Below, piece after piece: positions 18,601-57,879 of a stretch of DNA of 64,000 bases (positions are counted from its first letter, which is position 1; each line of letters begins with the position of its first letter). Made by a program: the position numbers and the translations under genes. The DNA lies in contig CAZVXH010000002.1 of the NCBI GenBank assembly GCA_964631015.1, positions 36 to 64,035 on the forward strand. Direction: 5' to 3'. Source of the DNA: an uncultured Candidatus Cloacimonadota bacterium (lineage in GTDB: Bacteria > Cloacimonadota > Cloacimonadia > Cloacimonadales > Cloacimonadaceae). The notes below the pieces were generated by a model. That model was not told where the DNA came from. It was given only the letters and a program-made list of their open reading frames with translations, and ran no database searches.

Positions 18601-18694
18601 GGTCTATCTGCCGGGTTTGGGCAGACAGGGTCAGGGCGAAGGCCAGGGCGACAGCTATCAGCGGTATCACCTTGCCTCTGAACTCTTTGTGCAT
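12695..18694 (-). CDS. giant secreted C25 (gingipain-like) cysteine peptidase (1999 aa) with MAM-like, FN3, unknown-module and Ig-like domains
   Basis: Signal peptide 'MHKEFRGKVIPLIAVALAFALTLSAQ'. C25 propeptide-like N-terminus. Catalytic dyad context 'NYTAHGSETSW' (His codon 17303-17305) and 'VGNCCVTNSF'. AAGGGAG RBS. Confidence 0.9.
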   Translation of the reverse strand: MHKEFRGKVIPLIAVALAFALTLSAQTRQIDLSTSANEARLNNNSDLGFDVQYSVGALKILEVQTREGAFDELSIDGWTHTNAVGEPKLPLLRKLIAVPLGADVRLTLNSQSARELDAVASKLRHRVIPAQESVSKSADPATLPFVVKEDIYSRAEFNSRDWVQVSDLGIMRGVRVFALDFYPVRYNPVDGSLRVMENLDVRVDFFNPDLVGTADMLARTGSHEFDALYAKSLFNWKADDRTSIVRYPTKYLILCPPNYTDELQPFVDWKIQQGYAVTVTTVGTGGTIANTTTAIKNYMSSVWSAATAQNPAPTYLLIIGDTSTSGDNVIAMPAQVTSPSSSHITDNYYVRLSGTDFVPEMYYGRFSVASAAELTNIVNKTLTWEKTQMTDLSYLGNVVMIAGVDSGFGPTHANGAINYATQNYFNTAHGINSNTYLYPASGSSDATIIANANAGRGFINYTAHGSETSWADPTFSVSDVNAMTNAGKYGVMVGNCCVTNSFGYSSPCFGESIIRKANAGGVAYIGATNNSYWDEDYWWGVGAKGTANGTAPAYDATKLGAYDAIYHDHSEAFTDWAQTMGETIWMGNLAVNQGGSSMINYYWEIYSIMGDPSLMPYYGVPTANPASYPAQIMIGNTSYAITGAAPYTRIGLSMNGVIYATGITDASGNLTLTITPFTTAGTAKLVLTAQDRITKIVDIPVVAAEGPYMSVDSVLYDDANNDAPDYNESGYLDVTFENVGVDPATNVSAVLTCSTTGVTITDANHTINSLAAGASLLADNAYAISIANNVANGTVANFTITMTMSGESPWTYNFSLTLNAPALAFGTITVSDPAPGNNNGRLDPGETVTITMPLHNTGAAASPAGSATLTCATPGITINTGTASFTAIAAAGSANLSFSLTAASSMTVGTVAALVFNATAGAYTANKTENVAVGLIIEDFSTGSFSSFPWIQSSTPWTIVNDNYHSASYAAKSGTITHSQSSTMETTRILSTSGDLSFWYKVSSESGYDYLKFYVDGTQQGQWSGEVDWTQASYTLAAGTRVLKWEYMKDGSVDSGSNCAWVDDIIFPASTTPSNFYPPQNLSAAPGNGYVNLTWQTPLTGTPTSYRIYRDGSLLTTVTGLTYTDNAVVNETTYSYYLIAVYSGGVSDPTDTVQATPSAIVPTEVIIGTGTNSNGTTTACPVNQYWRSLHGQSVYTAAELNAAGVVGPINITQIGFNITGLPAQAMPNFVVRMGHTTAANVASWISTGLSQVWSGASYQPTATGWNMYTLSTPFLWNGTDNLLVDTGFGLIASYNQSGTTEYSTVTNGYRYNRSDSADQTAVFTGGSTSTNRPNLKLALLPNEEGPMIVVSPGTLAYGDVAVGGTDVKTFTIANGGDQTLTGTITTPAGYSVAEAARSATATSGKVSRNSLGFSVNAGASKTYNLTFAPTAAQAYNGNVAIANNSNNNTSVNLAVTGTGYIPATIDIDNDALYANLQVETEGTDSFTITNTGSQPLTYSISMEELLAQANRQPQAASDADKSIAGSTLTLDATNYLPGTTVDWTFTVTNASTDSEWIKDVIISFPAGVTVNSATTFVGGDGGDLTPDVTSGSGVTVTWHGEGSSGWGVIYGNGDSASATVNVTIGIGLGGDLTLPWILNGDIYGSEPHTLDGSIVLAEDLPPIAWLSVQPLSGSIAAGQSATITAYFSAVGMAVGSYEAMLTIHSNDPVNPSLDVSATMDVWDNGNHAPQIILPASFAFDRNGSLTADFSSYVSDEDLDPLTLGYSGNTNILVAINGLSVTFTAAQNWTGTETVTFSVYDGYTYAYDSVQVTVNEVAGPGWEAVLYPNSATLHGIVTIYGVAGELNDVVGAFVGTECRGVADVVMNGANAYVTLVVNLASDGEEISFKIYDYSANLAYDALETYSLGYNDVIGSTETPVPVSVSEITELDTPVITAITKVSGGFRIAWNAVDYADIYEVWRATDPYGTYEQVGFNVNALLFDDLTELPMAFYYIKAVKN

Positions 18695-19501: not shown

Positions 19502-19504
19502 AAG

Positions 19505-20899: not shown

Positions 20900-20986
20900 C
20901 TTGTTCTCCTTGGCTGAATATGATCTTCATTTATGTCCTGTTTGAGAAATTCCCCGCTTGTGTCAAGCAAAACCGCAAAAAATATC

Positions 20987-21026: not shown

Positions 21027-21048
21027 AACACAATATAAAGGAGAAACG

Positions 21049-21980: not shown

Positions 21981-22075
21981 GCGGAAAGGAGGGACAGGGG
22001 ACAGGCGGAACAGCCCGGGGTTGACAGAATCCGCCCGCTGAAAAACTTCGGCAACGAAGGAATTGAATAGAATTA

Positions 22076-26406: not shown

Positions 26407-28137
26407 CTATCTGAGTTTCACCACGCGCAGGGGGCGGCTGTTTTGGGCGGACTCGTCTTTGATGAAGTAAATCCCGGCGGGGGTTTCGGGGCTTGGCGTC
26501 CAGCTAAGTTTGCCGTCGCCTTCCAGCGTGGCGAGCTTTTGGCCTTTAAGGTTGTAAATACTGGCCCGCAGTGTTCCGCGGGCGCTTGAGGCCAGCTCAA
26601 GTTTGTCGCTGAAGGGATTGGGCCAGGCGCTGAGCCGCGCCGGCGGCAAGATCGGATCTTCCGCGGGCAGGATGGGCAGGCTGGCGTCCACTATAAAGGG
26701 CACTTGGTAACAACCAAAGCTGTGGGCGAAAGAAATGCTGCCCTGGACCAACTCGCGGAGCCCGCCTTCCACTATAGCCAATTGCACGTGCACGATCAGG
26801 CTCTGGCCGGGTTCCAGGATGCGGGGCGGGGGAGGATAAAAGCCGCATAAAACAATCGCGTCCACCACGTGGTCTGGCGTCCAGCTAATCTGTTCAATGG
26901 TCAGGCTGGTGTCGCTGATATTCACAAGTTCAAAGAGGCGTCCATTCAATACGGCTTCGTTGTTCAAAAAGAAGACCGTATCCGGAACCGCCATCAGATA
27001 CTGGCGGGGTTCGATGTCCACGATGGCGCCTTCGACCACGGTGAGGTTGTAGGGAAACTGGTCCGGCAGCAGGTACCAGCCGCTGTTGGAGCCGCCCCAG
27101 CCGAAATTGATGTGGAAGAATCCGTCGGTATTGTAGCCGTCCACCGCCACGTTGTGGCCGGCGTCTCAGGCCGGCGTAACCACGGCCAGATGGACCGGCC
27201 GGGCGTCTTTGACGTTTTGCGCCATGCGGGTGTAAAGGTCAGGAGCAGTGGCCGCGAGCAGTTCGCTGCCGCTGAAACCGAAGCGTTGAAAAGCAGCGTA
27301 GGCCTGGCTAACGGCGAAAGTGCCGCTGCCTTCGGAGGTGTAAACCTGCTCCGCGGCCACCCCGCAGGCCCAGATCAGCGCGGCGGCATCGGCGGATGTG
27401 GTGGCCTGCTGCAGGGCGTAGTGGGTGGTGAGGGTGTCCAGCGCGGAGTTGAGTTCGGCCCAGGACGGGAAATCGCGCGCGGCGTGGTCGTCATCTATCC
27501 AGAAATTGCGTCCGGCGTAGTTGTGATGATAGTCGTCGGCATCCGAAAATCTCGTTCCGTTCAGGCTTTGGTGGTAGTTGACGATCTGGGCCATGGCCAC
27601 GGCGGGACAGCCGGCCACGCTGCGCTGTCCGGAAACCGGATCGATGGGGCAATCCGCGTTGTAGGGCGCGCTCTGGTGCCATTCGGTTTTGAGCCAGCCT
27701 CCCGAGGGAGAATATCCCGGCGGCGGCCACTGCTGAAAATCGTCGCGGTCAGAAATGGGGTTTTGCCACATCCGGCGGTATCTTGACCGCTCCGCGGGAC
27801 CGGCGCCGGCCTGGCGAAAAGTAAGGTCGGCCGTGATGAGTTCCGCCAGCCAGAGATCGGTGGCGGGGTCAAAATCTGAGGTGAAAGAATAGGCCAGCAC
27901 GGGGGGAAGGTCATCCGCGGCGGCAACAACGATGTAGCCCTGAGGCTGCAGGCCGAAGATCCAGGCCAGCGGGGAATCAACTTCGCCCAGGGGACGTGGC
28001 GGCAACAGGGTTCCGCTGACTTCTAGCCTTTGCAACTGGGCGCGGGCAACACTTTCCGCCTGGGCGGTACTCACGGATTCCGCGTAAATACAGGCGCAGA
28101 GCAGGATCAGCGCCAAACCAAACAAGAGTTTTTTCAT
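26407..28137 (-). pseudogene. C10 (streptopain/SpeB-like) cysteine peptidase with T9SS C-terminal domain, interrupted by one in-frame TGA (27166-27168)
   Basis: The upstream half (27169-28137) has a signal peptide, a prodomain and the Cys motif 'AGCPAVAMAQIVNYH'. The downstream half has the His motif 'DAGHNVAVDGYNTDGFFHINFGWGG' and a T9SS C-terminal domain ('WPNPFSDKLEL...IYNLKGQKLATL...GIYFIKD'). Both halves are in the same frame: '...VHLAVVTPA*DAGHNVAVDGY...'. Confidence 0.7.
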
Positions 28138-28221
28138 GATAACGCTCCTGGATGGTAACAAAGCAGATATTGAACCAATTTGTCAAATAAGTTCCGTGGT
28201 ATGGGTTTAAACACCGTTGGA

Positions 28222-43138: not shown

Positions 43139-46100
43139 ATGAACAGAAGGAAGATCCTGCTGACCGTATTGCTTGTCATCTTTGGCACGCTCGGTTTGGC
43201 GGCCGCGCCGCGCTTTGGCGAACGGCCTTTCATCGACATTTATCAGGTTCCTGACAGCGCCATCGAACAGGGGCACATCAGGATCAAGCTCAGCGAGGAC
43301 CATTCCGCGCTGGCCCAAAGTTTTCAATATCAAAACGGCGCTCTGGCCAGCTTCGGCATCGAAGAACTGGACGCCCTCAACCTTCAGTACGGGATCAAGA
43401 AGATCAGCCCGGTTTTCGGCGACGTGAGCAAGAACCTCAAGTGGGGCTGGCGTCACGTGGAATGGGGCCTGCATCTTTGGTTTGAACTGGATTACGACAG
43501 CGCCGCGGACATCCGCGAGATCGTGCTGGCCTACCGCGGCCTGAAAACCAATGTGCAGTGGGCCGAGCCCGAATACAAGAAAACCCTGCTTTCCCTCAAC
43601 CAGGATGAGGTTTCCGCCCTCGCTGAAACCATCAGCCGCTGGACCCCGAACGACCCGCGTTACGGCGAACAGTGGCACTACAACAACACCGGCCAGACCA
43701 GCGGAACCATCGATGCCGACATCGACCTGCCCGAGGCCTGGGACATCGAGAAAGGCCATCCGGACGTGATCGTGGACGTGCAGGACGGAGGCTTCCAAAC
43801 CGACCATCCCGACCTCAACGGCAACCTCTGGAACAATCCCGGCGAAATTGCCGGCAACGGGATCGACGATGACGCCAATGGTTATATCGACGATATTTAT
43901 GGCTATAACTTTGTAAACAGCAACGCGACCATAGTGGGTCATTACCACGGCACCCACGTATCCGGCACGATCGCTGCCGAATCCAACAACTCCACCGGAG
44001 TGTCCGGCGTCGCCGGTGGTAATGGAACCACGCGCGGAGTCAGCCTGATGTCCACCCAGGTGTTCACAGATGCCTCGAGCGGTGGCTTTGAAACCGCTCC
44101 CGTCTACGGCGCGGACAACGGCGCCGCCATCTCCCAGAACAGCTGGGGCTATACCAGTGTGGGAGCCTATGATCAGGTGGTGCTGGACGCCATCGACTAT
44201 TTTAACGCCAACGGCGGCGGTGCCGTGATGAACGGCGGCATCACCATTTACGCGGCCGGAAACAGCGAGTCATCCGGCCAGTGGTATCCCGGCTGCTACA
44301 GCGGTGCCTTCGCCGTGGCCGCCACCACCCACAACGACACCAAAGCCTGGTACTCGAACTATGATACCTGGGTGGATGTCTCAGCCCCCGGCGGAGAAAC
44401 ATCTGTGACAGCGCAGGGCGTGCTGAGCACCTATACTGGAAGCGGTTATGACTTCCTGCAAGGTACTTCGATGGCCTGCCCCCACACCTCCGGCGTGGCC
44501 GCTCTGGTGCTTTCTTATGCCCACCGCAACGGCCGCACCCTCTCCAATACTGAATTGGCCAATATAATCCGGAATACCACCGACAACCACTACGCTGCGA
44601 ACCCAGGCTACATTGGGCAATTGGGTACCGGGCGCATCAATGCCTACCAGGCTTTGCTGGCCACCGATCCCACCCTGCCCTCGGTTACCATCACCGCGCC
44701 CATCAATGGTTCTGTGTACGATCTCAACAGCAGCATCACCATCACCGCCACCGCCACGGATACCGACGGCACGGTCACCGGCGTGGCCTTCTATATCGAC
44801 GATGTGCTGCAGATTACCGACACCTCCAGCCCCTACAGCTGGGTCTGGAATACCACCGGTTACAGCGGCGGATCGCACGTTATCAAAGCCATCGCCACGG
44901 ATAACGACAGCCACACCGCCACCAGCACGGTCACCGTCACCCTGCTGGCTCCTCCGGATGAAGGTTTTGAGACCGGCAACTTCTCCGCATTTGCCTGGAA
45001 CAACAGCAGCGCGATACCGTGGACGGTGCAGAGCGTGGATAAGTTCTCCGGCACCTATGCCGCCAAGAGCGGCGCCATAAGCTCCAGCGGCAGCACCACC
45101 CTCAGCCTGCCTGTGGTGGTTAGCAGCGCCGGAAACATCAGCTTCTGGTACAAGGTGTCCTCCGAATCCAGCTACGACTGGCTGCGCTTCTATGTGGACG
45201 ACGTACAGCAGGGCCAGTGGTCCGGCTCAGCGGGCTGGGCCGAAGCTTCCTATGCCGTTGGCTCAGGACCGCACACCTTGTCCTGGACCTATTCCAAAGA
45301 CGGCTCTGTGAATACCGGCAGCGACTGCGCCTGGCTGGACCACATCATCTTCCCCCCGATGGGTGCCTACTATGCCCCGCCGCGAAACCTGACCGCCACT
45401 TCCGGCAATGCCGTGGTAAATCTTGCCTGGCAGGCTCCCGCCTCCGGAACTCCCACCGGCTACCGGATCTACCGCGACGGCAACCTGCTCACCACAGTTA
45501 CCGGACTCACTTACACCGACAGCGCCGTGGTGAATGAAACCACCTATAGCTACTACGTAACCGCGGTCTACAGCGGAGGGGTTTCCGATCCCTCCAACAC
45601 CGTGACTGCCTTCCCCACCACCAATCCCCTTGCCACCATCATCATCGGCGAAGGCACGGGATCGCAGACCTACCCCATCGACCGCTATTACAACTATTCC
45701 GGCCATGAAGCCATCTACCTGGCCGATCAGATCGGCACCGCCTGCAACATCAAGTCCCTGGGCTTTTACAAGTCCAGCGGCGTTAATGTGGCCCCTATCG
45801 AGGCAGTGACCATCTACATGAAACACACCACTGAATCATCCCTGGCCACCGGCAATTACAGCACCACCGGCTACACCCAGGTCTTCAGCGGAAACTTCCC
45901 GAACACCGCGACCTCCGGCTGGATGGAGGTGGAGCTGAACAGCCTCTTCGCTTACAACGGAACTTCCAACCTGGCCATCCTGACCATCAAAGGCAACCAG
46001 GCCTATATATCCGATTATCCCTATTGGACCTACAGCACCACTACTGGCACCCAAGCCCGTCAGGCCCACAGCGACTCCGCCCAGCCCCTATCCCTGACAG

Positions 46101-48181
46101 CCTCCACCAATCTGCCCAACCTGAAGCTGCAGGCCTACTTACCCGCCGGTGTCCTCTATCCCGCGCGGAACCTCACTGCGGCAGGCGGTAATGGCTTTGT
46201 CCTGCTGAACTGGATCGCTCCTTTCAGCGGAACCCCCACCGGCTACAAGATCTACCGGAACGGCAGCCTGCTGACCACCGTTACGGGGCTCACATACACC
46301 GACAACGCCGTGGTGAACGGCAGCACCTACTCCTACTATGTGGTGGCAACCTATTCTGGTGTAGACGCTGATCCCACCGCCACCGTTCAGGCCACGCCAC
46401 AATTGGTGACTTCCGCCATCATCGGCGATGGGGCCGGCAGCGGCGGAACCTCGGAAGCCTGTCCGATCAACGTGTACTATCAGAGCCTGCACGGCCAGGC
46501 CGTCTATACCAAAGCCGAGTTAAACGCCAAAGGCGTGTTCGGGCCTATCGACATCTCTCAGATCGGCTTCAATGTGACCGGCTTGCCCAGTCTCGCCATG
46601 CCCAACTACCTCATCCGCATGGGCCACACCAGCGCCGTAGATGTTGCCACTTGGATCTCCACTGGTCTCAGCCCTGTCTGGAACGCTGCCTCCTATCAAC
46701 CCACCGCGACCGGCTGGAACATGCTAACTCTGGCGACCCCCTTCACCTGGAACGGCAACGACAATATCGTGCTGGACACCGGCTTTGGCCTGATCGGTTC
46801 CTGGAACTCGAGCGGAACAACGCAGTACACATCCGTGACCAACGGCTACCGCTACGTGCGCAGCGATACAGTCGACCAGACAGATATCTTTACTGGCGGC
46901 TCAGCCACAGTCTACCGTCCAAACCTGCAACTAACTCTGGCGCCTGAAGTGGTGCAAGCCCCCGAGATCGTGGTTTCGCCTCTGACCCTGGATTTCGGCG
47001 CCGTCCTGGTAGGCAGCACCGGAGTGCTGCAGTTCACCGTGCAAAACACCGGCACAGCCGCGCTGACAGGCTCGATAAGCACCCCGCTTGGCTATACCGT
47101 GTCCCAGGTGATCGCCAAAGGCGTCAGCTCCGCCCCTGAAAGGTCCGCCGTTCCCAGCGGCAAGAGCGCGCCCGCTCTGGAAACCCAGCGCAATACCCTC
47201 ACCCTCAGTGTGCCGGCTGGTCAGAGCGTTGTCTACAACCTCAGCTTCGCTCCCACCTTGGCGCAAGCCTATCCCGGCAACGTGACCATCAGCAGCAATG
47301 ATGCCGATGAACCCACGGTCAACATCGCCATCACCGGCAGCGGCTACACCGACCCCAGCATCAGCGTGAACCCCACCAGCCTCATCTCCACCCTGCCCGT
47401 GAACGGCGGAGAAAACCTCAGCTTCCACATTGGCAATTCCGGCAGCCTGAACCTCGAGTTCACCGTCACGGAAACACCCTCCGCGGACTGGCTAAGCTTC
47501 TTCCCGCCCCTCGGAACGGTGTCGCAAGGTGCTTCACAGGAAGTGGTGGCCAGCTTCAACGCCACCGGCCTCGCCCCCGGCCAATATCAGACCACCCTCA
47601 ACGTCGCCTCCAATGATCCGGAAACCCCCCTGCTGGCAGTCACTGTGACCCTCAACGTCACCAACAACGCCCCCACCCTCAGTCTGCCTCAGGAAGGGTT
47701 CCAGTTCGACATGAATTCCACCCTGCAGGTGGATTTTAGCCAATATATCGCGGATCTGGATGGTCACACAGTCACCCTTACCGTTGGTGAGAGCGACTTC
47801 ATCCAGGCTTCCATCGTCGGACACTTGGTCACTTTCTCCGCGCCGGCCGATTGGTTCGGCAGCGAGATCCTGAACTTCGTGGTGGATGACGGCTACGCGG
47901 TTGGCTTCGGTTCCGTGACGGTCACAGTCAACCTCAATTACCTGGCTGTGCCAAACGTCACCGTCGTCAAATCCGCCGGCGGAGTCACCGTCTCCTGGGA
48001 CAATGTGGCCAACGCCAACCGCTACCATATCTACCGCGCCACCGATCCCTACGGCAATTACGGCACTCTGCCCTTCGCCACGGTGCTCGCGCCAAATTCC
48101 AGCTGGGAGGACACCGAAGTCCTGCCCATGGCCTTCTACAAGGTTGTGGCGGCTTTTGAGGAACTTCCCGCCAAACAATAA
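43139..48181 (+). CDS. giant secreted S8 (subtilisin-like) serine peptidase, 1680 aa, with Ig-like, MAM-like, 2x FN3, 2x unknown module and an FN3-like tail
   Basis: Signal peptide 'MNRRKILLTVLLVIFGTLGLAAA'. Catalytic triad contexts 'VDVQDGGFQTDHPDL', 'HGTHVSGTIAA' and 'GTSMACPHTSGVAAL'. Confidence 0.9.
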   Translation: MNRRKILLTVLLVIFGTLGLAAAPRFGERPFIDIYQVPDSAIEQGHIRIKLSEDHSALAQSFQYQNGALASFGIEELDALNLQYGIKKISPVFGDVSKNLKWGWRHVEWGLHLWFELDYDSAADIREIVLAYRGLKTNVQWAEPEYKKTLLSLNQDEVSALAETISRWTPNDPRYGEQWHYNNTGQTSGTIDADIDLPEAWDIEKGHPDVIVDVQDGGFQTDHPDLNGNLWNNPGEIAGNGIDDDANGYIDDIYGYNFVNSNATIVGHYHGTHVSGTIAAESNNSTGVSGVAGGNGTTRGVSLMSTQVFTDASSGGFETAPVYGADNGAAISQNSWGYTSVGAYDQVVLDAIDYFNANGGGAVMNGGITIYAAGNSESSGQWYPGCYSGAFAVAATTHNDTKAWYSNYDTWVDVSAPGGETSVTAQGVLSTYTGSGYDFLQGTSMACPHTSGVAALVLSYAHRNGRTLSNTELANIIRNTTDNHYAANPGYIGQLGTGRINAYQALLATDPTLPSVTITAPINGSVYDLNSSITITATATDTDGTVTGVAFYIDDVLQITDTSSPYSWVWNTTGYSGGSHVIKAIATDNDSHTATSTVTVTLLAPPDEGFETGNFSAFAWNNSSAIPWTVQSVDKFSGTYAAKSGAISSSGSTTLSLPVVVSSAGNISFWYKVSSESSYDWLRFYVDDVQQGQWSGSAGWAEASYAVGSGPHTLSWTYSKDGSVNTGSDCAWLDHIIFPPMGAYYAPPRNLTATSGNAVVNLAWQAPASGTPTGYRIYRDGNLLTTVTGLTYTDSAVVNETTYSYYVTAVYSGGVSDPSNTVTAFPTTNPLATIIIGEGTGSQTYPIDRYYNYSGHEAIYLADQIGTACNIKSLGFYKSSGVNVAPIEAVTIYMKHTTESSLATGNYSTTGYTQVFSGNFPNTATSGWMEVELNSLFAYNGTSNLAILTIKGNQAYISDYPYWTYSTTTGTQARQAHSDSAQPLSLTASTNLPNLKLQAYLPAGVLYPARNLTAAGGNGFVLLNWIAPFSGTPTGYKIYRNGSLLTTVTGLTYTDNAVVNGSTYSYYVVATYSGVDADPTATVQATPQLVTSAIIGDGAGSGGTSEACPINVYYQSLHGQAVYTKAELNAKGVFGPIDISQIGFNVTGLPSLAMPNYLIRMGHTSAVDVATWISTGLSPVWNAASYQPTATGWNMLTLATPFTWNGNDNIVLDTGFGLIGSWNSSGTTQYTSVTNGYRYVRSDTVDQTDIFTGGSATVYRPNLQLTLAPEVVQAPEIVVSPLTLDFGAVLVGSTGVLQFTVQNTGTAALTGSISTPLGYTVSQVIAKGVSSAPERSAVPSGKSAPALETQRNTLTLSVPAGQSVVYNLSFAPTLAQAYPGNVTISSNDADEPTVNIAITGSGYTDPSISVNPTSLISTLPVNGGENLSFHIGNSGSLNLEFTVTETPSADWLSFFPPLGTVSQGASQEVVASFNATGLAPGQYQTTLNVASNDPETPLLAVTVTLNVTNNAPTLSLPQEGFQFDMNSTLQVDFSQYIADLDGHTVTLTVGESDFIQASIVGHLVTFSAPADWFGSEILNFVVDDGYAVGFGSVTVTVNLNYLAVPNVTVVKSAGGVTVSWDNVANANRYHIYRATDPYGNYGTLPFATVLAPNSSWEDTEVLPMAFYKVVAAFEELPAKQ

Positions 48182-48198
48182 CCAGATCTGAAACAATG

Positions 48199-48237
48199 GC
48201 CCGGCCTGTTCCCTGGTGAATTGGCCGGGTTTTTTTT
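48199..48237 (+). terminator. intrinsic terminator after the S8 gene
   Basis: CCCGGCC...GGCCGGG stem followed by T8. Confidence 0.8.
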
Positions 48238-48254
48238 ACCCCCGGGAAAGGTTG

Positions 48255-48315
48255 TGCAAAGGAAATTGTAACTTTTGCACCGGAAATTGCAACATTAACA
48301 AGCCAATCATACATT
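48255..48315 (+). promoter_or_regulatory. two 18-nt direct repeats (TGCAaaGGAAATTGtAAC and TGCAccGGAAATTGcAAC, 21-nt period) overlapping a TTGCAA-17-TACATT promoter
   Basis: Repeats at 48255-48272 and 48276-48293. -35 at 48287-48292 and -10 at 48310-48315. The ATG is at 48336. Confidence 0.4.
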
Positions 48316-48335
48316 TTCACTTCAAAGGATCGATC

Positions 48336-51300
48336 ATGAGGAAAACCACCTTCGCCTGGCCCCTACTGCTGGCCATGCTACTGCTGATCCCCCTCTCTCT
48401 GGCAGCGCAAAACCTGCCCGGCGGCTCAGCTTTCACCGTTACCCGCGACAGCGGCGACGGCATCCAGATCAGTTTTCAACTTCCCGCCTGGGAGCTCGAG
48501 TCTGTCGAGCGCGACGGCGCCACCCTTTCCCGGGTTCGCGTGGACGGAATCCCCAATCTCTTCATCGGCGAAGAGGAGACCCTGCCGGTGTTCAGCGCCA
48601 TGGTGGCCATTCCCTGGCGCGGCGGCGTGAGCCTGCGCGACTCCGGCGACCCGGCTGAACTTCGCTCCGGGGTCCAGCTGGATTTTGCCGCCGCCCTGGC
48701 CGCGGAACGCCAAAGCGGCCGCTTGCCGGAAAAGCTCTATCCAGCCGCGCCCGCCCTCATCTCTGAACCCATGCTGCTGCGCGATTTCCGCGTGGTGAGC
48801 CTCAACGTGCATCCTTTCCAGTGGGACAGCGCCACGGGCGAACTGCTCGTGCGGGAAAGCCTTACCCTCAACCTCGATTTCGACAACGGCCCCTCCGTGA
48901 ACGAGACGACGCCAGCCCTCAGCCTTTCCCCAGCCTTTGCCAAGATCTATCCCGGCCTCATCCTCAACTACCAGCAGCTGCTTGGCCGCGATGGACTCGA
49001 ATACTCCAACCCCCGCCTGCTGGTGATCTACGGCAACTTCAGCGACGCCATCTATCTGGGCAAGGTGAACGAATACGTTACCTGGAAACGCCAGAAAGGC
49101 TTCCTCGTGAATGCCGTTAGCACCGCCACCGCGGGAACCACCTCAGGCGCGATCAAAACCTACATCCAAGGCCTGTATGACAACCCGGACACCCGGCCGG
49201 ATTACATCAGCATCATCGGCGACGCGGGCACTGGTAACATGCAGGTTCCGTCCAACGACACCTACCACGATTACAATTACACCTGGCTGGCGGGTGGCGA
49301 CAACCTGGGTGACGCCGCCATCGGCAGGATCTCGGTGGAAACCACGGAGCACCTACAGAACTACATGGCCAAGATCAACAGCTTGGAGATAAACATCAAC
49401 CCGGATGCTGCCGCCTGGCTGGACCGCATGCTGCTGGTGGGGGATACGGCTTCCTCCGGCATCTCGACCATCTACACGAACGAATACATCCACGACCGCT
49501 CCCTGGAAGTAAACCCGGATTACAGCTATACAGAGCTTTACAATGGGGCACCCCCTTCCACCAGCATCAACGCGGCCATCAACCAGGGCGTGGCTTTCTA
49601 CAATTACCGCGGCTATATAAACATGAGCGGCTGGCCCAGCACCATGGGCAACATGGCCAATGGCAACCGCCTCTTCCACGCGGTCTTCATCACCTGCAGC
49701 ACCGGCAGCTTCGGCGGAGGGACCGCCACCACGGAATCGGTGGTCCGCCATGGCACGGAAGCCTCTCTGGGAGGCGCGGTGACCGCCATCGGCATGGCCA
49801 CTTCCAGCACCCACACTCCGATGAACAACTGCCTGGACGTGGGCATCTTCCACGGCATTTATCCCCTGGGCATGCGGAACATGAGCGAGGCCATGCTCTA
49901 CGGCAAGCTCTACCTTTACGCGGTTTATGGCGTTAGCAACACCGCCCAGGCCAACAACTTCTCCGGCTTTTGCAACCTGATCGGCGACCCCACCGCCCCC
50001 GTCTATGTGGGAATTCCTGAAACTTTCAGCCTCTCCGCTCCGGCAAGCGTTCCCACCGGTACCACCAACCTGGAAGTAGGGGTGAAGGACGCCGCGAACC
50101 AGCCCGTGGCCGGCGCCTCCGTGGTACTCACCAACAGCTCCGGACAGCAAATCGCCCTGGCCTTCAGCGATGCCACCGGCCTGGCCTACCTGGATTTTGC
50201 CGCCCTCACCGGCGCTGTCAGCCTCACCGTGAACAAAGACGACTTCAAGCCACAGGTGCAGACTATTACGCTAAACAGCTCCGGCGGCCTGGCCTTTGAA
50301 GAAACGGAGATCGACGACTACGATTCCGGCAACGGCGACAACATCGCCAACCCCGGCGAAAACCTGGACCTCTATTTCTGGCTGCGCAACACCGGCGCGG
50401 TCGCCACCGGCGCGTTCAGCGGCACCCTCAGTTGCAACGATCCCTATGTGGTCCCGGTGAGTAACCCGATCAACTTTGCCTCCATCAGCCCCAACGCCAC
50501 TGGCGTCAGCAGCGCCGTGGGCATGGAAATCAGACCCAACTGCCCGGATCAGCACCGTGTGGTGCTCACTTTCACCCACGCGGGCGGGCAGATCGCCGTC
50601 CCCATGCTTGTCTCCGGCGGCCGTTTGGAGATCGTGGCCCACAGCTTTGTGGGCTCACCCGGCAATCTGGTGAATCCCGGCGACAGCTGGCCCCTCACCT
50701 TTACCCTCGCCAACAGCGGCGGCGCTCCCCTCACCAATCTGACTGGAACTCTCAGCTCCCTGGATACTTTCTTTGCAGTAAGCGATGCCCAGGGCGCCTG
50801 GGGCAACCTTGCCAGCGGCGCCAGCGCGACCAACAGTGCAAACACTTTCACTATCAGCGCCAGGAACAGTTGCCTGGACGGCATGGTGATCCCCCTCCAG
50901 CTTGATCTCACCGCCACAGACTTCGCCCAGAGCATCCCGCTCACTTTCACCCTCGGCCAAACCTCGGTCACCGACCCCCTCGGCCAGGATGCCTACGGCT
51001 ATTTCATCTTCGACGCGGGCGACACCAGCTATGACCAGTGTCCCACCTACAATTGGATCGGCATCGCCCCCGCGGAAGGCGGCAGCGGCACCGCCCTCAG
51101 CCTTTCCGACCCCGGCAACAGCTCTGACGAAGGCGATCAGGTGGGTGCGGTGGCCATCCAGACAGTGAACCTGCCCTTCAGCTTCAAGTATTACGGCGTG
51201 GATTACAGCCAGGCCTCCATCTCCTCCAACGGTTTCATCGCCTTTGGAGCCACCAACGACGCCGACTGGCGCAACTGGCGTCTGCCCGACGCTGGCGGAC

Positions 51301-54300
51301 CCAGCCCCATGGTCGCCGTTTTCTGGGATGACCTCGACCTCGTTAGCGGCAGCAGCTACGTGTACACTTGGTACAACAGCGCCCTGCATTACTATGTGGT
51401 GGAGTGGTACAACCTGTATTCCGGCTACGATGGCACCACGCAGCAGACTTTCCAGGCCATCCTCTACGATCCTCTCTATTATCCCACTCACACGGGCGAT
51501 GGCCAGATCAAGCTCCAGTACAAGGTCTTCAACAACATCGACCTCGGCGACGGAGACAGCTATCCCCACGGCAACTACGCCACCATCGGCATTGAGGATC
51601 ACACTTCCACCGTAGGCTTGGAATACACGTTTGGCAATACCTGGCCCACCGCCGCCGCCCCGCTGGATAACGAAAGCGCTCTCTTCATCACCACCCGGCC
51701 GATCATACCGGATTACCCCTATCTGGTGCTGGAACAGATCTTTGTACACGACGCCAATGCCAATGGCCATCTGGAACCCGGAGAAAGCTCCCAACTAAAT
51801 ATCCGCCTGGGCAACCGCGGTTTGGTGGATGCCACGAACGTTTCGGCAGTGCTCAGCAGCGCCGATCCCTACGTTACTGTAACCACAGCCAACGCCACTT
51901 ACGGCACCGTTCCAGCTCAGGGAAGTGCCTACCCTTCCGGCAATTACGCTGTAAGCGTGGCCCCAACCTGCCCGGCTGACCACCAGCTCACCTTTACCCT
52001 GGCCATCACCAGCGCCACCGGCAGCTGGAACTACAACTTCCCGTTGACAGTGGTGGTGCCAGAACTCAGCTTCAGCAACCCGCAGGTGAGCGATCCCAGC
52101 GGCAACCAGAACGGCATCCTCGATCCCGGCGAGACCGCCGTCATCACCATCCATCTGAACAACATCGGCGTGATCCCCAGCCCGGCTGGAACCGCCACCC
52201 TCAGTTGCTCCACTCCCGGGATCAGCGTAACGGATGCCTCGGACAGCTTTACCAGCCTGGCAGCGGGTGCCTATGCCACCCTCAGCTTCGAGCTCAGTGC
52301 CTCCGCCGCCATGACCCAGGGCACTTTGGTGACCCTCGGGTTCAACGCCCTGGCCGGCTCCACCAGCGCCAGCCACAGCGAATACCTCGAGGTGGGCGCT
52401 CCGCTGGAGGTCGTGATCGGCGCGGGTACCTCCACCCAGAACTATCCCCTCGACCGCTATTACAACTACAGCGCCCACGAAGCCATCTATCTGGCCTCCG
52501 AGATCGCCACCGCCGGCACTCTGAAAGCCCTCGCTTTCCAAAAAGCCAGCGGTACGGATGTGGATCCCATCGCCGCCGTCTCCATCTATCTGAAGCACAC
52601 CACCGCCAGCAGCATCAGCGCCGGGGATTACAGCCTCACCGGCTATACCCTGGTCTACAGCGGCGCTTTCCCGAATACAGCCGCCTCCGGTTGGATGGAG
52701 GTGGATCTGAATCCCATGTTCTTCTACGACGGTGCTTCCAATCTTTCCGTGCTAACCGTGAAAGGCTTTCAACAGTACATCAGCGGTTATCCCCAATGGA
52801 CCTATTCCGCGCCCGGGGGCAACCGCGCCCGCCAGAACCGCAGCGATTCTGCCGCTCCCACCAACTTGATGGCCTCAACCTACCTGCCCAACCTGCGCCT
52901 GAAAGTGTTTCCGGATTACGATGTCTTGCTGCCGCCGCAAAATCTGACCGCTGTACCCGGAAACGGCTTTGTGAACCTCAGTTGGGAGGCTCCCGCCACC
53001 GGTTCCCCCATCAGTTATCAGATCTATCGCAATAACACTCTGCTGGTCACAGTTACCGGTCTGAACCACACCGACACCGCGGTTGTTAACGAGACCACCT
53101 ACAGCTACCATCTGATCGCCATCTATGACGGCGGCGCTTCTGGAGCCACCCCCACGGTGCAGGCAATGCCCACCGCGGTTGTTGTCACCGAAGCCATCAT
53201 CGGCTCCGGCACCGCCAGTAGCGGTACATCTGAAGCCTGCCCCATAAACGAATATTATGAAAGCCTGCACGGCCAGTCCGTCTATACGGCTGCCGAACTC
53301 AACTCCGCCGGAGTGGTGGGACCCATCGTGATCAGCAGTATCGGTTTCAATGTGACCGGTCTGCCCAGCCTCGCGATGCCCAACTACGTGGTCCGGATGG
53401 GGCACACCAGCGCCTCCAATGTGGACGCCTGGATCTCCACCGGCCTCACCCAGGTTTGGAGTTCCGCTTCCTATCAGCCCACTGCCACCGGCTGGAACAT
53501 GTTCACACTTACCACTCCCTTCACCTGGAACGGTAGTGACAACCTCCTGGTCGACACCGCCTTTGGCGATATCGGCGACTGGAACTCCAGCGGTACCACC
53601 CAGTTTACTGAAGTGACCAGCGGCTACCGCTATGTCCGCGAGGACAATAGCGACCAGACCAACATCTTCACCGGAGGCTCCACCTCGACCTACCGCCCCA
53701 ACCTGAAGCTGCTCCTTGTGCCGGACGAGGAACCTGAACTGCTTCCCCCCACCAACCTCAGCGCCAGCGCCAGCCACGGCTACGCGCGCCTGAACTGGGG
53801 AGCCCCGGCCAGCGGAACTCCGGACGGCTACAAGGTTTACCGCGACGGCAGCCTGCTCATCTCCGTGACCGGCCTCACCCACACCGATCTCAGCGTAACC
53901 GACGGAACCACCTATCAGTATGGGGTAAGCGCGGTTTATGCCGGAGGGGAATCCGTTCCCGCCGGCCCCGTGAGCGCCACGCCCAACACTCAGCCCCCCA
54001 CGAACCTCACCGCCCTGCCCGGCAACGCCGTGGTGAACCTCAGCTGGTCCGCCGCGTCAGGCCGCGGGCTTTTCTCTGAGCTCGCTTCTTTCGGCAGCAA
54101 GGACCGCGACATCAGCGGCTACCGGATCTACCGCAACGGGGTGGCCCTCACCACGGTCGCGGCAACCTCATATCAGGATGCCGGACTGAGCAACGGGACT
54201 GCCTACAGCTACCATGTGACCACCCTCTACAGCGCTCCCGCGGGCGAATCCGCGCCTTCGAACACCGTGATCGCCACTCCGAACAACCTCCAGACCGTCA

Positions 54301-55064
54301 TTATCGGCAGCGGCACCTTGGTTACCAACGGCAACCAGAACAGCCCCCTCAACATCTGCAACAACAGCGTGCACGGCCAGTCGGTCTACACCGCCGCGGA
54401 ACTCAACGCCGCCGGCATCTTCGGACCCATCGAGATCATCGGTTTGGGCTTCAACGTGGTCACACCCCCCAACCTGCCCCTGCCGAACTTCATCATCCGC
54501 CTCAAACACACCCCGGCCACCAACGCCGCTGCCTGGAGCGATGCCACCGGACTGCAAACCTGCTACACCAACGCCGCTCTGATGCCCGTGGCCGGAGGCT
54601 ACGATCTGCTGAACTTCCAAACCCCCTTCCTCTGGAATGGAACGGACAACCTCCTCGTGGATACCGCCTTCAGCCCCGTGACGGTGGCCAGCCAAAGCGG
54701 AACCCTCCAATACACCTCCGTCAGCAGCGGCTACCGCTTCGCCTGGAGCAACAGCGACGACCAAACCGCGGTCTTCAGCGGCGGAACAGCGGTTACCCGC
54801 CGCTATAACATCCAACTGGCCTGCCGGGAGGCGGAACTCGCCCTCGACCCGCCGTCTGTCGCCATTTCCTTCAGCGGCGCCAACCGCCTGCTTACCTGGA
54901 ATAGCGTGACCAACGCCACCTCCTATCAAATCTGGTGGTGCGCCGATCCTTACGGAACTTACGAAGCGCTGGCCACCCTCAACGATCCCCTGGCCACCAG
55001 CTACACCGACACCCGCCCGGGCCTCGACCGCGCCTTCTACCGCGTGACCGCCCTGCGACCCTGA
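48336..55064 (+). CDS. giant secreted C25-like protein, 2242 aa, lacking the canonical catalytic His, with 3x unknown module, several FN3 domains and an FN3-like tail
   Basis: Signal peptide 'MRKTTFAWPLLLAMLLLIPLSLAAQ'. C25 propeptide-like N-terminus. 'YISIIGDAG'. The Cys context 'FITCSTGSF' is retained, but the aligned His-Gly reads 'NYRGYINMSGW' (Tyr codon 49614-49616). Confidence 0.85.
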   Translation: MRKTTFAWPLLLAMLLLIPLSLAAQNLPGGSAFTVTRDSGDGIQISFQLPAWELESVERDGATLSRVRVDGIPNLFIGEEETLPVFSAMVAIPWRGGVSLRDSGDPAELRSGVQLDFAAALAAERQSGRLPEKLYPAAPALISEPMLLRDFRVVSLNVHPFQWDSATGELLVRESLTLNLDFDNGPSVNETTPALSLSPAFAKIYPGLILNYQQLLGRDGLEYSNPRLLVIYGNFSDAIYLGKVNEYVTWKRQKGFLVNAVSTATAGTTSGAIKTYIQGLYDNPDTRPDYISIIGDAGTGNMQVPSNDTYHDYNYTWLAGGDNLGDAAIGRISVETTEHLQNYMAKINSLEININPDAAAWLDRMLLVGDTASSGISTIYTNEYIHDRSLEVNPDYSYTELYNGAPPSTSINAAINQGVAFYNYRGYINMSGWPSTMGNMANGNRLFHAVFITCSTGSFGGGTATTESVVRHGTEASLGGAVTAIGMATSSTHTPMNNCLDVGIFHGIYPLGMRNMSEAMLYGKLYLYAVYGVSNTAQANNFSGFCNLIGDPTAPVYVGIPETFSLSAPASVPTGTTNLEVGVKDAANQPVAGASVVLTNSSGQQIALAFSDATGLAYLDFAALTGAVSLTVNKDDFKPQVQTITLNSSGGLAFEETEIDDYDSGNGDNIANPGENLDLYFWLRNTGAVATGAFSGTLSCNDPYVVPVSNPINFASISPNATGVSSAVGMEIRPNCPDQHRVVLTFTHAGGQIAVPMLVSGGRLEIVAHSFVGSPGNLVNPGDSWPLTFTLANSGGAPLTNLTGTLSSLDTFFAVSDAQGAWGNLASGASATNSANTFTISARNSCLDGMVIPLQLDLTATDFAQSIPLTFTLGQTSVTDPLGQDAYGYFIFDAGDTSYDQCPTYNWIGIAPAEGGSGTALSLSDPGNSSDEGDQVGAVAIQTVNLPFSFKYYGVDYSQASISSNGFIAFGATNDADWRNWRLPDAGGPSPMVAVFWDDLDLVSGSSYVYTWYNSALHYYVVEWYNLYSGYDGTTQQTFQAILYDPLYYPTHTGDGQIKLQYKVFNNIDLGDGDSYPHGNYATIGIEDHTSTVGLEYTFGNTWPTAAAPLDNESALFITTRPIIPDYPYLVLEQIFVHDANANGHLEPGESSQLNIRLGNRGLVDATNVSAVLSSADPYVTVTTANATYGTVPAQGSAYPSGNYAVSVAPTCPADHQLTFTLAITSATGSWNYNFPLTVVVPELSFSNPQVSDPSGNQNGILDPGETAVITIHLNNIGVIPSPAGTATLSCSTPGISVTDASDSFTSLAAGAYATLSFELSASAAMTQGTLVTLGFNALAGSTSASHSEYLEVGAPLEVVIGAGTSTQNYPLDRYYNYSAHEAIYLASEIATAGTLKALAFQKASGTDVDPIAAVSIYLKHTTASSISAGDYSLTGYTLVYSGAFPNTAASGWMEVDLNPMFFYDGASNLSVLTVKGFQQYISGYPQWTYSAPGGNRARQNRSDSAAPTNLMASTYLPNLRLKVFPDYDVLLPPQNLTAVPGNGFVNLSWEAPATGSPISYQIYRNNTLLVTVTGLNHTDTAVVNETTYSYHLIAIYDGGASGATPTVQAMPTAVVVTEAIIGSGTASSGTSEACPINEYYESLHGQSVYTAAELNSAGVVGPIVISSIGFNVTGLPSLAMPNYVVRMGHTSASNVDAWISTGLTQVWSSASYQPTATGWNMFTLTTPFTWNGSDNLLVDTAFGDIGDWNSSGTTQFTEVTSGYRYVREDNSDQTNIFTGGSTSTYRPNLKLLLVPDEEPELLPPTNLSASASHGYARLNWGAPASGTPDGYKVYRDGSLLISVTGLTHTDLSVTDGTTYQYGVSAVYAGGESVPAGPVSATPNTQPPTNLTALPGNAVVNLSWSAASGRGLFSELASFGSKDRDISGYRIYRNGVALTTVAATSYQDAGLSNGTAYSYHVTTLYSAPAGESAPSNTVIATPNNLQTVIIGSGTLVTNGNQNSPLNICNNSVHGQSVYTAAELNAAGIFGPIEIIGLGFNVVTPPNLPLPNFIIRLKHTPATNAAAWSDATGLQTCYTNAALMPVAGGYDLLNFQTPFLWNGTDNLLVDTAFSPVTVASQSGTLQYTSVSSGYRFAWSNSDDQTAVFSGGTAVTRRYNIQLACREAELALDPPSVAISFSGANRLLTWNSVTNATSYQIWWCADPYGTYEALATLNDPLATSYTDTRPGLDRAFYRVTALRP

Positions 55065-55084
55065 ACCTTGTATCCCCACGCTCC

Positions 55085-55114
55085 GGGGCGGGAATTTCCC
55101 GCCCCTTTCATTTT
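55085..55114 (+). terminator. intrinsic terminator after the C25-like gene
   Basis: GGGGCGGGA-ATT-TCCCGCCCC followed by TTTCATTTT. Confidence 0.75.
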
Positions 55115-55153
55115 CCCCAAAAATCCCTAACTCCCTGCGGGAAAAAATAATCC

Positions 55154-55357
55154 TTGACTGAACAGGCTTGGCCAAATATTGGTGCCAAATACGCAACTGG
55201 CTCTGATGGAAGAAGTTGGAGATCGGCTCTGAAAGTCCTTGGGGATAGCCACCACGGGACCGCCGCTCTCACCACCGGAACCCCATGTGCAAACGATACC
55301 AGTCTCCTTAACGATAGTGTAAAACGCCGCTCCTTCCCGGGGCGGTTGTTTTTTTTC
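55154..55357 (+). ncRNA. candidate small transcript (~150-170 nt) bounded by a promoter-like site and an intrinsic terminator. Identity unknown
   Basis: TTGACT-17-TATTGG at 55154-55182. Terminator CCGCTCC-TTCCC-GGGGCGG plus TTGTTTTTTTT at 55327-55357. It lies between two other transcription units, and I recognised no convincing ORF, RBS or known RNA-family motif. Confidence 0.25.
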
Positions 55358-55386
55358 TTGACATATGTTCCTCTCCCCACAATATA
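55358..55386 (+). promoter_or_regulatory. candidate sigma-70-like promoter TTGACA-17-AATATA for 55470-56975
   Basis: Exact TTGACA immediately after the terminator T-tract, about 85 nt upstream of the ATG. Confidence 0.45.
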
Positions 55387-55469
55387 TGCTCACGATTCAT
55401 GGTTCCGCGCCCGGAAAGGATTCAAGGCGATCCGTCCGAAAGCGGAATAGTAAATTTGAGGAGACAGGT

Positions 55470-56975
55470 ATGAAAAGCTTGCCGCTGCTGTTTGTGCTGT
55501 TGGTGATTTCCACGGGTGTTTGGGCAGAGGTTTATCAGATCGGAACGGGGACCACACCCTCCAATCAGGCCCCGGTCAATGGCAATGCCAATTTTAGCTG
55601 GAGCAAAATGATCTGTCCCCGGACAGATATCAGCAACGCCGGACTGGGCACCACGTCGGAGATCATTGGGATCGGCTTTTCCCTGAACAATCTGATGTCG
55701 GACTACTCTTTCACTAACCAGCACATCTACATGCGCCATACTGACCTTTCATCTTACAGCAACCTCAGTCTGGACCTCACCGGCGCCATTGAGGTTTACG
55801 CTGGCATCGTCACATTTCAGGATACCGGATGGCAACAGGTCTCATTCAGCCAGGTTTTTGCGTGGGATGGAGTAAGGAACATCGAGCTTATCTGGACAAA
55901 CCAGCATGGAACAAGCAGAACAGTATCCCCTCAGTTCCTCCATTCTGGGACCTCGGCCAGTACCTTGGTTTACAAGAGCGGAAGTGCTTTTCCCACTGGC
56001 CCGGGAACGGCTGCAACACGCTTGCCGAATCTGCAACTGATCACGCCAATGCCACCCTTGCCAGCGCTGGCTGTGTATCCGCAGGACGGGAGTTATGCTT
56101 TGCCGGGGTCGCGGTTGATCTGGAAAAGCGGAGGTGGCTGTCCGACCTCGTATGACGTGTATTTTGGCACGGTCGATCCACCGCCTTTGGTGAGCGACGG
56201 CCAAACAAGCGCTTGGTATCAGCCGGCGCTGGCAGCGGGCGGCAGCTATTTTTGGAAGATCGTTCCCTCCAATCTCGGCGGCAGTCCCGCGAGCGTGCCG
56301 CTGTGGAGTTTCCGGGTGCCAGAGGAAGGCCAGTTGGCCGAGAGTTTTGAGACCTGGCTGCCGGCAGATTGGGCGAATCCGGGGGGGTGGAACAGCTACT
56401 CCAGCTATCCCTACCACGGCAGCTACTGCGCCTATGCTTCGGCGGATACGTACGGGAAATTGCTGTCAACGCCCAGGCTTTACGTGAGTGCCGGTTCCAG
56501 CCTGGAGTTTCAGGCCCGGAGTTCAAGCACAGCCGGCAACGCCCGGATGCGGATCAAATATTCTGGCGATGGCAGCAACTGGTCAGTGTTGGAGCCTGCG
56601 TTGAGCGTTACTTCAACCGTTTCCTGGCAGCGCTTTCAGGTAGATCTGAGTTCACTGGCGGGGCAGAGCGTGTACTTGGGTATCGAGGCCTTCAATGCAG
56701 ATGCCTCCGGTACTGTGGGTATCTACCTGGACCAAGTTGTAGGTCCGCGTCCGGCCGGTTTGTATCCGCCGCCGGAGCTCAGCATCAGTCGCCAGGGCAA
56801 TAATTTCAGTCTGGTCTGGACACCGCGGGTCGGGGCCACAGGCTACCGGGTGTATGCCGCGCAGGGTCTGGATTCCTTTACTGAAACGCCGCTGGCTGTT
56901 CTGGGCGCCGGAGTGACGAGTTACTCCGTGCCGGCCGGAGCGGGGAAATTCTTTCGGGTAACGGCGCTGTATTAG
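55470..56975 (+). CDS. secreted non-catalytic paralogue (501 aa): unknown module + Ig/FN3-like + MAM/jelly-roll-like + FN3-like tail
   Basis: GAGGAG RBS. Signal peptide 'MKSLPLLFVLLVISTGVWA'. The module ends 'TRLPNLQLI'. The tail reads 'WTPRVGATGYRVYAAQG...KFFRVTALY'. Confidence 0.8.
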   Translation: MKSLPLLFVLLVISTGVWAEVYQIGTGTTPSNQAPVNGNANFSWSKMICPRTDISNAGLGTTSEIIGIGFSLNNLMSDYSFTNQHIYMRHTDLSSYSNLSLDLTGAIEVYAGIVTFQDTGWQQVSFSQVFAWDGVRNIELIWTNQHGTSRTVSPQFLHSGTSASTLVYKSGSAFPTGPGTAATRLPNLQLITPMPPLPALAVYPQDGSYALPGSRLIWKSGGGCPTSYDVYFGTVDPPPLVSDGQTSAWYQPALAAGGSYFWKIVPSNLGGSPASVPLWSFRVPEEGQLAESFETWLPADWANPGGWNSYSSYPYHGSYCAYASADTYGKLLSTPRLYVSAGSSLEFQARSSSTAGNARMRIKYSGDGSNWSVLEPALSVTSTVSWQRFQVDLSSLAGQSVYLGIEAFNADASGTVGIYLDQVVGPRPAGLYPPPELSISRQGNNFSLVWTPRVGATGYRVYAAQGLDSFTETPLAVLGAGVTSYSVPAGAGKFFRVTALY

Positions 56976-57105
56976 GTTCCGGAAAAAGAGAAACAGGAGA
57001 TCAAGAGCAGGAAAGCCAAGGCTGGGGTACTGGCGTATTGCCGTTACCGGCAGGACGTAAAAGGGGCTTGGACGGCTCGATGAAGTTGGCAAAGTTGAGA
57101 ACTGT

Positions 57106-57180
57106 CATTCCGGGGTAGGGGCCCCGAAATCCAGCCATTCCGAGTAATTCCCTCAGAGGGTGTCGATCCAGACGCAGCCT
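57106..57180. repeat. ATTCCGGGG hairpin-repeat family, long copy
   Basis: CATTCCGGGGTAGGGGCCCCGAAATCCAGCC...AGAGGGTGTCGATCCAGAC is collinear with 4272-4355. Confidence 0.7.
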
Positions 57181-57432
57181 GGAGCGCCCCCGCCTTGACC
57201 CAAGATTGGGATTGGCTATTCCCGCAAGGTCTGGATTCGATCACCCCACCGGCCAACAAGTTGTCCGGCGAGGACCCCGACGGGGCTCCTGTCGCTGGCG
57301 CGACTTCCCCGGAATGACGGAGGTTCTGGGAGGGGTGACGTGGTGGCGGGGTGGTGACAGGCGTAGCGCAGCATGCCAATGCCGCGTACCGGCATCCCAT
57401 GATTGGTATCATGCGCCACGTGGTACTAATAT

Positions 57433-57720
57433 GGCTGGATTCCAGCCTGCGAGGCTGTGTGAAAAGCAAGAGAAAATTCCGTAAAAGTCCCGTAGGGACG
57501 GAATTTCAGATAGCACCCAAGTCCGAAAAATGCCCCCGGAGTCCCGTAGGGACGGCATATTGTAATCTGATATTCATATAAACCACAATGATATACGTAT
57601 CATATATGTCGTCCCCAAGGGACTCACGTAAAACATCATGAAACCAACGTGTCTATCTAAAATAGCGTCCCTCCGGGACTTTGAAAAGAGTTTTCACACA
57701 GCCTCCTGCGCTGGAATGAC
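57433..57720. repeat. ~290-bp composite palindrome with ~30-bp terminal inverted repeats and four GTCCC-N3-GGGAC hairpins around an AT-rich centre
   Basis: TIR cores GGCTGTGTGAAAA (57453-57465) and TTTTCACACAGCC (57691-57703). Hairpins at 57487-57499, 57541-57553, 57611-57623 and 57667-57679. All pairs are symmetric about position ~57580. Confidence 0.75.
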
Positions 57721-57879
57721 TGGCTCTCAGGTTTGCCCACCATAATTGAACTTGAGCCTTACTGAACCGGTTCCGCCCCAAGCCGCCGCTCCTGAACTTT
57801 TCCTGAGCCTCACAGCGACTTCCCCCCCCAACAGGCGGGGACATTGAGGGAGGCAGGCGCGGGGCGCGGGGGAGAGGGT

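Follow-up and report, generated by a model that had tools for sequence, protein, structure and literature searches.

Four Sec-exported proteins encoded in a 64,000-nucleotide chromosomal piece of an uncultured Candidatus Cloacimonadota bacterium (contig CAZVXH010000002.1 of assembly GCA_964631015.1, positions 36 to 64,035 of the forward strand; hereafter the window) end in one and the same domain of about 70–80 amino acids (aa), here called the tail. In Cloacimonadota proteins the tail was found to be strictly terminal, single-copy, carried by unrelated heads and exclusive of the T9SS (type IX secretion system) type A C-terminal domain (CTD), and this is the pattern typical of a sorting or anchoring tag. 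Because the tail occupies the exact slot that the type IX secretion tag holds in sister proteins, we regard it as a probable export or attachment tag; with a probability of roughly 55%, it would be a Cloacimonadota-specific module that serves Sec-exported hydrolases and adhesin-like proteins as a C-terminal address. The identity and distribution of the tail are solid, and it represents a real and well-delimited C-terminal domain class of Cloacimonadota exoproteins that is apparently undescribed, with no describing paper found and no model present in Pfam (2025) or NCBIfam (June 2026). An earlier note, made from the letters of the window, had suggested that the tail could be an alternative secretion or attachment tag; the pattern behind that proposal holds, while the function itself we infer.

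Sec signal peptides were read directly from the window sequences of all four carriers. The S8 subtilase gene (43139..48181, +) encodes Peptidase_S8_N, S8, Big_7, fn3, choice_anch_D and HYDIN-like immunoglobulin (Ig) domains, followed by a tail of 82 aa (47933..48178, +) in which strand F is succeeded by 'FEELPAKQ'. The C25 gingipain-like peptidase gene (48336..55064, +) specifies a propeptide, C25, CARDB and three internal fibronectin type III (FN3) domains ahead of its 76-aa tail (54834..55061, +), which ends in 'AFYRVTALRP'. On the minus strand, a further C25 peptidase gene (12695..18694) combines a propeptide, C25, a C25_C Ig domain, choice_anch_D and a cadherin-like domain with a tail of 75 aa (12698..12922, −) ending in 'LPMAFYYIKAVKN'. 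The fourth carrier is a choice-of-anchor-J protein of 501 aa (gene 55470..56975, +), whose terminal tail (56757..56972, +; 72 aa, ending in 'KFFRVTALY') is the most divergent of the four. The earlier note had located this common tail right to within a few bases, and its description of the carriers as giant exoproteins fits three of them (about 1680, 2240 and 1999 aa) and fails for the 501-aa protein.

The stop codon lies 0–7 residues after each of these tails, which follow the pattern P.V.I...G...W..V..A..Y.(I/V)(Y/W)...(D)PYG.Y......(A/K)F(Y/F).(V/I).A, with 20–38% pairwise identity and P, W, A, Y, F and A invariant throughout. A hidden Markov model (HMM) built from the four tails and run against the six-frame translated window recovered these four and nothing else at 104–118 bits, with the ordinary FN3 domains within the same proteins scoring no higher than about 3 bits. 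To this was added a leave-out HMM, containing 65 tails of database C25 homologues and zero window sequences, with 826 six-frame open reading frames (ORFs) of the window as its target. It assigned 78 bits to the minus-strand C25 peptidase, 66 bits (E = 8e-20) to the S8 peptidase and 60 bits (E = 5e-18) to the plus-strand C25 peptidase (48336..55064); the tail of the 501-aa protein, which had scored 28.8 bits with one tail HMM, was matched partially at 17.5 bits (E = 1e-4), and the next-best window ORF reached 8.7 bits. Since the leave-out model still recovers all four window tails, their similarity goes beyond chance.

Position was then assessed in pooled Cloacimonadota proteins and loci, gathered through homologues and through tail patterns from two narrow sub-alignments. 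This set yielded 144 terminal matches of 17.9–98.3 bits, one per protein and 0–17 residues from the stop, and 171 internal FN3 matches in the same proteins, which remained at or below 12.8 bits. Homologues of the minus-strand C25 peptidase were represented by 120 clusters: in 102 of them the protein ends in exactly one tail, in 5 it ends in a type A CTD, 10 are labelled partial and 3 are oddly ended; none of the 120 carries a tail together with a type A CTD, or a tail at an internal position. Orthologues of the 501-aa protein keep the tail in 19 of 19 cases, 1–2 residues from the stop, down to 31% identity. A chance resemblance, or a generic FN3 domain without positional bias, could draw on the fact that most profile matches across phyla are internal tandem repeats, but the leave-out E-values contradict the former and the terminal placement of all 144 tail-class matches in Cloacimonadota, none internal, the latter; for this lineage the explanation is already refuted, and we give it virtually no weight.

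The heads that carry the tail are of at least seven kinds, namely C25, S8, M14 and M6 peptidases and choice_anch_J, Ig-only and Y_Y_Y proteins. In the fetched loci (numbered L001 onwards), which also yielded further tail-ending C25 genes, the tail was found on an M14 carboxypeptidase whose neighbour gene encodes an M14 enzyme with a type A CTD (L005), on M6 metallopeptidases (in L009 and L010, plus a fragmented gene of L001), among them one with an ordinary, Pfam-recognisable fn3 domain just before the tail, on an Ig-only protein of 1338 aa (L006) and on a Y_Y_Y-domain protein (L008). The domain directly upstream of the tail varies likewise, being choice_anch_J, cadherin-like, fn3 or HYDIN-Ig. 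After the F-strand alanine the chain generally runs on for 1–13 residues, except for polar extensions of 16–33 aa in the metagenome loci L025 and L026.

The relation to the type A CTD can be followed within the window itself. The earlier note had contrasted the tail carriers with two secreted peptidases thought to end in type A domains, and both were confirmed as TIGR04183 matches (34.8 and 25.1 bits, cut-off 23). The first, at 1–1347 (+) and previously noted just as a secreted peptidase, proved to belong to a third C25 peptidase, of which the window start leaves only the 3′ part, with its CTD at 1078..1344 (+); the window therefore holds three C25 genes, of which two end in the tail and one in a type A CTD. 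The second, at 26407–27150 (−), covers the 3′ part of a gene for a C10 (streptopain-like) peptidase (26407–28161, −), with its CTD at 26410..26640 (−). This C10 gene is split by an in-frame TGA at 27166–27168 (−), just upstream of the catalytic-His motif 'GHNVAVDGY', which could mean that the gene is a pseudogene, that the assembly is wrong there or that the stop is recoded. The possibility that another frame hides a CTD downstream of the tails was rejected as well, since the CTD HMM, run on all six frames of the window, finds just the two CTDs already known. The same juxtaposition recurs in L009–L011, where some 2.5 kb separate a tail-bearing C25 gene from an ORF that ends in a CTD; in L010 this ORF is the CTD-type C25 homologue P0244. 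Because the contigs with tail genes also encode cargo with a type A CTD, the tail-bearing organisms presumably possess a T9SS; no T9SS gene lies near the tail genes in the window.

The family identity of the tail was pursued with 67 non-redundant, diverse tails. In Pfam and NCBIfam the four window tails produced no relevant match at E ≤ 10, apart from two chance-level ones (E 0.08 and 0.15). At E ≤ 1, the 67 tails produced no T9SS family match, weak matches to the FN3-like GH85_C domain in 35 of 67, and a single PF00041 (fn3) match (1 of 67; E 0.061), below the gathering score. Searched against the PDB, the 67-tail profile matched 3mpc (E 2.8e-10), 5g56 (the CtXyl5A FN3; E 6.4e-09) and 7jgt (E 1.7e-06), and no CTD-bearing chain. 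An AlphaFold2 model of the S8 peptidase tail based on the 67-sequence alignment (predicted local distance difference test, pLDDT, 90.2) comprises six strands, A, B, C, C′, E and F; a second, independent AlphaFold run on the whole 501-aa protein (pLDDT 85) also places six tail strands at 437–500, with the chain stopping one residue past strand F. By Foldseek the top 50 PDB structures are almost all FN3, with query-normalised template-modelling (TM) scores of 0.55–0.73, and include no T9SS CTD. Given these FN3 matches by profile and fold, and six strands in both models, the tail is by prediction an FN3 domain without strand G, an atypical member of the superfamily by sequence and modelled fold that remains below threshold for Pfam; the predicted structure is not a complete seven-stranded FN3. 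The FN3-like nature suggested earlier is thus upheld by the PDB profile and Foldseek matches.

A divergent T9SS CTD of type A, B or C, missed by the standard models, would share with the tail its size, extreme C-terminal position and beta-sandwich, and it would sit naturally on the classic T9SS cargo families C25, M14 and S8 and agree with the many tails ending in Lys. The comparisons speak clearly otherwise. All 67 tails are without a match to T9SS families, including the type B models (TIGR04131/PF13585, CHU_C); hhalign gives a probability of 0.7% for the tail against type A CTDs from the same genomes and of 74% (E 2.8e-5) against internal FN3 domains of the same proteins; and the model is six-stranded rather than seven-stranded and lacks a motif-E strand. 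For the ChiA-like type C (cl41395), no T9SS-related NCBIfam match was obtained from a library in which the presence of a type C model is uncertain and with ChiA itself uncompared. With HMM, hhalign and Foldseek in agreement, homology to T9SS CTDs of types A and B is effectively refuted and this explanation very improbable, and the earlier view that the tail differs from the T9SS CTD of its neighbours stands. Other known terminal signals gave no better account: dockerins had zero Pfam matches in the tails or the whole tail proteins, and for PEP-CTERM, LPXTG and GlyGly-CTERM signals no hydrophobic stretch follows the tail in the sequences read directly and no NCBIfam match was found.

Beyond Cloacimonadota the picture changes. 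A word-index search with the four tails returned only 8 fragments, all from close orthologues, whereas an exhaustive profile search at E ≤ 1e-3 matched 34,539 proteins. The best 150 of these, which the copy counts cover, contain 7–43 internal tandem FN3 copies each, and the best matches are tandem FN3 spacers of the 'SW.AV.GA.GY.VYRS' type. In 149 tandem-FN3 proteins (1,959 copies), the last copy came within 15 residues of the C-terminus in 3 of 149; in generic FN3 repeat proteins, 17–19 residues, corresponding to strand G, normally follow the last copy. Loci L014, L015, L017, L018 and L024 (from Clostridiales, Eubacterium, a deltaproteobacterium and a metagenome contig) also showed internal tandem or non-terminal copies. 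The terminal restriction proposed at the outset therefore holds within Cloacimonadota and not across all life, where internal tandem repeats dominate: because the profile matches such repeats in other phyla, sequence alone does not delimit a terminal-only family, and at superfamily level the restriction is formally refuted. What sets the tail apart is its position, copy number, lineage and absent strand G.

The homology to ordinary FN3 brings in a quieter explanation, namely that the tail is a passive terminal FN3, acting as cap, spacer or substrate-binding module, which reached its position as C-terminal cassettes were shuffled between genes for related exoproteins and has no role in export or attachment. 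The tail is bona fide FN3 by sequence and fold, FN3 is a common spacer in bacterial hydrolases, neither a partner gene nor a known sorting motif was found, and M6 and C25 tails form one common subtype (56–79% identity), which fits recent domain transfer. Homogenisation of tails within genomes found no support, cross-family identity being 61–73% within a genome versus 66–73% between genomes. A spacer would, however, be expected to occur sometimes internally, in duplicate or before a CTD, and 0 of the 144 tails do so, though those same proteins hold ordinary FN3 domains in internal, repeated positions. Where C25 paralogues are complete, their ending is the tail or else the CTD, and the orthologues of the 501-aa protein retain the tail despite their low overall identity; moreover, because the upstream neighbour domains differ, the tail has not moved only within one cassette. 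A passive cap does not explain the strict position and the either/or relation with the CTD, and we judge it unlikely, if a serious contender.

The residues behind strand F suggested still another role. Many tails (e.g. P0186, P0178 and P0214) carry a short basic stub, x3-P-x-K/R-G-x-K, after this strand, and 60 of 142 tails have Lys as their final residue; in the window, the site listed under this observation is the end of the S8 tail (48158–48178). The tail might thus be a removable pro-domain or handle, clipped by the Lys/Arg-specific C25 peptidase and trimmed by the co-encoded M14 enzyme during maturation, without serving as an address, in a manner recalling gingipain and CPG70 processing in P. 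gingivalis. The frequent stub and terminal Lys and the conserved C25–M14 gene pair agree with such a role. Many tails are devoid of the stub, among them three of the window's four, the junction of body and tail shows no conserved cleavage motif, and exclusivity with the CTD is left unexplained, which makes a removable handle improbable.

The gene pair itself is represented in the window by the M14 gene at 10858–12693 (−), which directly follows the C25 gene at 12695–18694 (−), and it occurs also in L003, L004, L005 and L006; the pairing is reminiscent of the gingipains and the CPG70 carboxypeptidase of P. gingivalis. Over its final ~150 aa (10858–11310, −) the M14 protein ends in two 'GWNL(I/V)S...G(K/E)GYW(I/V)' units with no Pfam match, and the same pair of units, followed by '...PQNPTKTNRY', ends the C25 homologue P0206, which has neither tail nor CTD; judging by these sequences, the pair may be a third kind of terminal module. 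Beside the C25–M14 pair of L003 and L004 lies an opposite-strand cluster of three genes (18528–23311, −, and 15139–19922, −, respectively) encoding proteins of 665, 418 (DUF5723) and 510 aa, with no NCBIfam match and no conservation in the window.

If the tail is an addressing module, the following route can be envisaged. The Sec system would export the protein across the inner membrane, after which the terminal FN3 would be recognised at the outer membrane or the cell surface. The recogniser might be the T9SS or its shuttle or anchor protein, in which case the tail would constitute a fourth class of cargo signal; alternatively, it might be a scaffold at the surface, where the enzyme would be parked much as by a dockerin. 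Both are plausible because the T9SS accepts three unrelated CTD classes (PMC10202324) and Cloacimonadota dockerins occur on the same enzyme families. In a rough division of the overall probability, a T9SS-linked signal is a tentative possibility and T9SS-independent docking a slightly weaker one. The likely contact surface would be the conserved C–C′ loop (D/E)PYGxY together with the open edge of strand F, along which the shuttle, anchor or scaffold could supply strand G. Such pairing of a partner strand with the open beta-edge left by the absent strand G is speculation built on the models; the more specific proposal that the tail is a fourth, Cloacimonadota-specific export or attachment signal of the Fibrobacterota–Chlorobiota–Bacteroidota (FCB) group, running parallel to the type A CTD within one cell and directing sister enzymes to another destination by way of a partner-supplied strand G, is accordingly put forward as doubtful. 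Choice-of-anchor domains owe their name to a position upstream of alternative C-terminal sorting signals, and tail carriers contain the NCBIfam choice-of-anchor D or J domains.

Several points weigh against an addressing module. The sampling through homologues and tail patterns was biased towards carriers; the tail shares its ancestry with ordinary FN3 spacers, and internal repeats of other phyla match its profile in the tens of thousands; and no sequence or profile similarity links it to type A or B CTDs. A candidate partner gene, PorP/SprF-like or other, was not found beside the tail genes of the window. Tails of different families are no more alike within one genome than between genomes, and co-evolution with a receptor common to them is thus not indicated. 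The absent strand G, finally, is a prediction of the models.

The window, at about 59% G+C, encodes housekeeping functions (Pol I, GAPDH, a P-type ATPase and a PPDK-like gene), is also rich in genes for secreted peptidases and shows neither tRNA nor Rfam features; among named relatives, the one closest to its C25 peptidase comes from Candidatus Syntrophosphaera (92% identity). Cloacimonadota are uncultured, abundant fermenters of protein and amino acids that inhabit anaerobic digesters and anoxic waters, and their very large secreted peptidases are presumably the feeding route. Coding ORFs of the window are marked by a G+C content at third codon positions (GC3) of about 0.75–0.82; the gene for the 501-aa protein (55470–56975, +) has a GC3 of 0.65, versus 0.76–0.82 in its neighbours, and the ~900 bases 3′ of it (56976–57880) hold no convincing ORF, tRNA or Rfam match. 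Each of the four tail proteins contains 1–3 copies of a module of ~190 aa without Pfam annotation ('IIGxGT...CP.N.YY.S.HGQ.VY.A.EL...IGF..'). Elsewhere, a protein of 1355 aa (34626–38693, +) has PPDK_N and PEP-utilizers matches confined to its last ~450 aa, its first ~900 aa being without annotation.

Should the tail prove to be an address tag, it would define a cargo class of its own, which might be a further T9SS signal type or a new docking system, and would offer a simple sequence rule for predicting the exoproteome across the whole phylum. It would also explain why these gingipain-like enzymes are without the expected CTD, and would represent an ordinary spacer fold made into a terminal signal through the loss of one strand. 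If it is just a cap, a clean family definition, currently absent from Pfam and NCBIfam, is still gained.

Among known systems, the type A CTD (TIGR04183/PF18962) resembles the tail in its position at the extreme C-terminus of Sec-signal C25 and M14 proteins, its similar size and its beta-sandwich, and it holds the tail's slot in paralogues of the same genomes. The tail differs in its six rather than seven predicted strands and in being without motifs A–E and the Lys-bearing last strand, which in the type A CTD is required for secretion (PMC10202324). In 'Ca. Stygibacter', another member of the Cloacimonadota, C-terminal dockerins are found on S8 and C25 enzymes and are proposed to park these signal-peptide enzymes on a surface scaffold, the cohesin scaffoldin itself carrying a CTD (PMC8542988). 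Phylum, enzyme families and the use of a non-CTD C-terminal module are thus shared; the dockerin, however, has an EF-hand-like fold rather than an FN3 fold, and a cohesin-like partner belongs to its system. Incomplete Ig-like folds completed by a donor strand are known from the chaperone–usher pilins and the type V pilins of Bacteroidia; their sole likeness to the tail is a beta-sandwich without its last strand, predicted in the tail, and no homology is claimed, pilins being polymerising proteins whereas nothing suggests polymerisation of the tail proteins. The nearest relatives are the bacterial FN3 domains of the 'W..V.GA.GY.VYRS...G.Y' type (3mpc of Clostridium thermocellum and CtXyl5A, 5g56), which are homologous to the tail, have the same fold (TM 0.66–0.70 to the query) and share with it the core residues, i.e. 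the strand B Trp, the strand C Tyr and the F-strand 'FY.V.A'. Those domains have seven strands and serve internally, usually as tandem spacers (7–43 copies among the best matches), whereas the tail is single, always last, stops right after strand F in the predicted fold and has a (D/E)PYGxY loop of its own.

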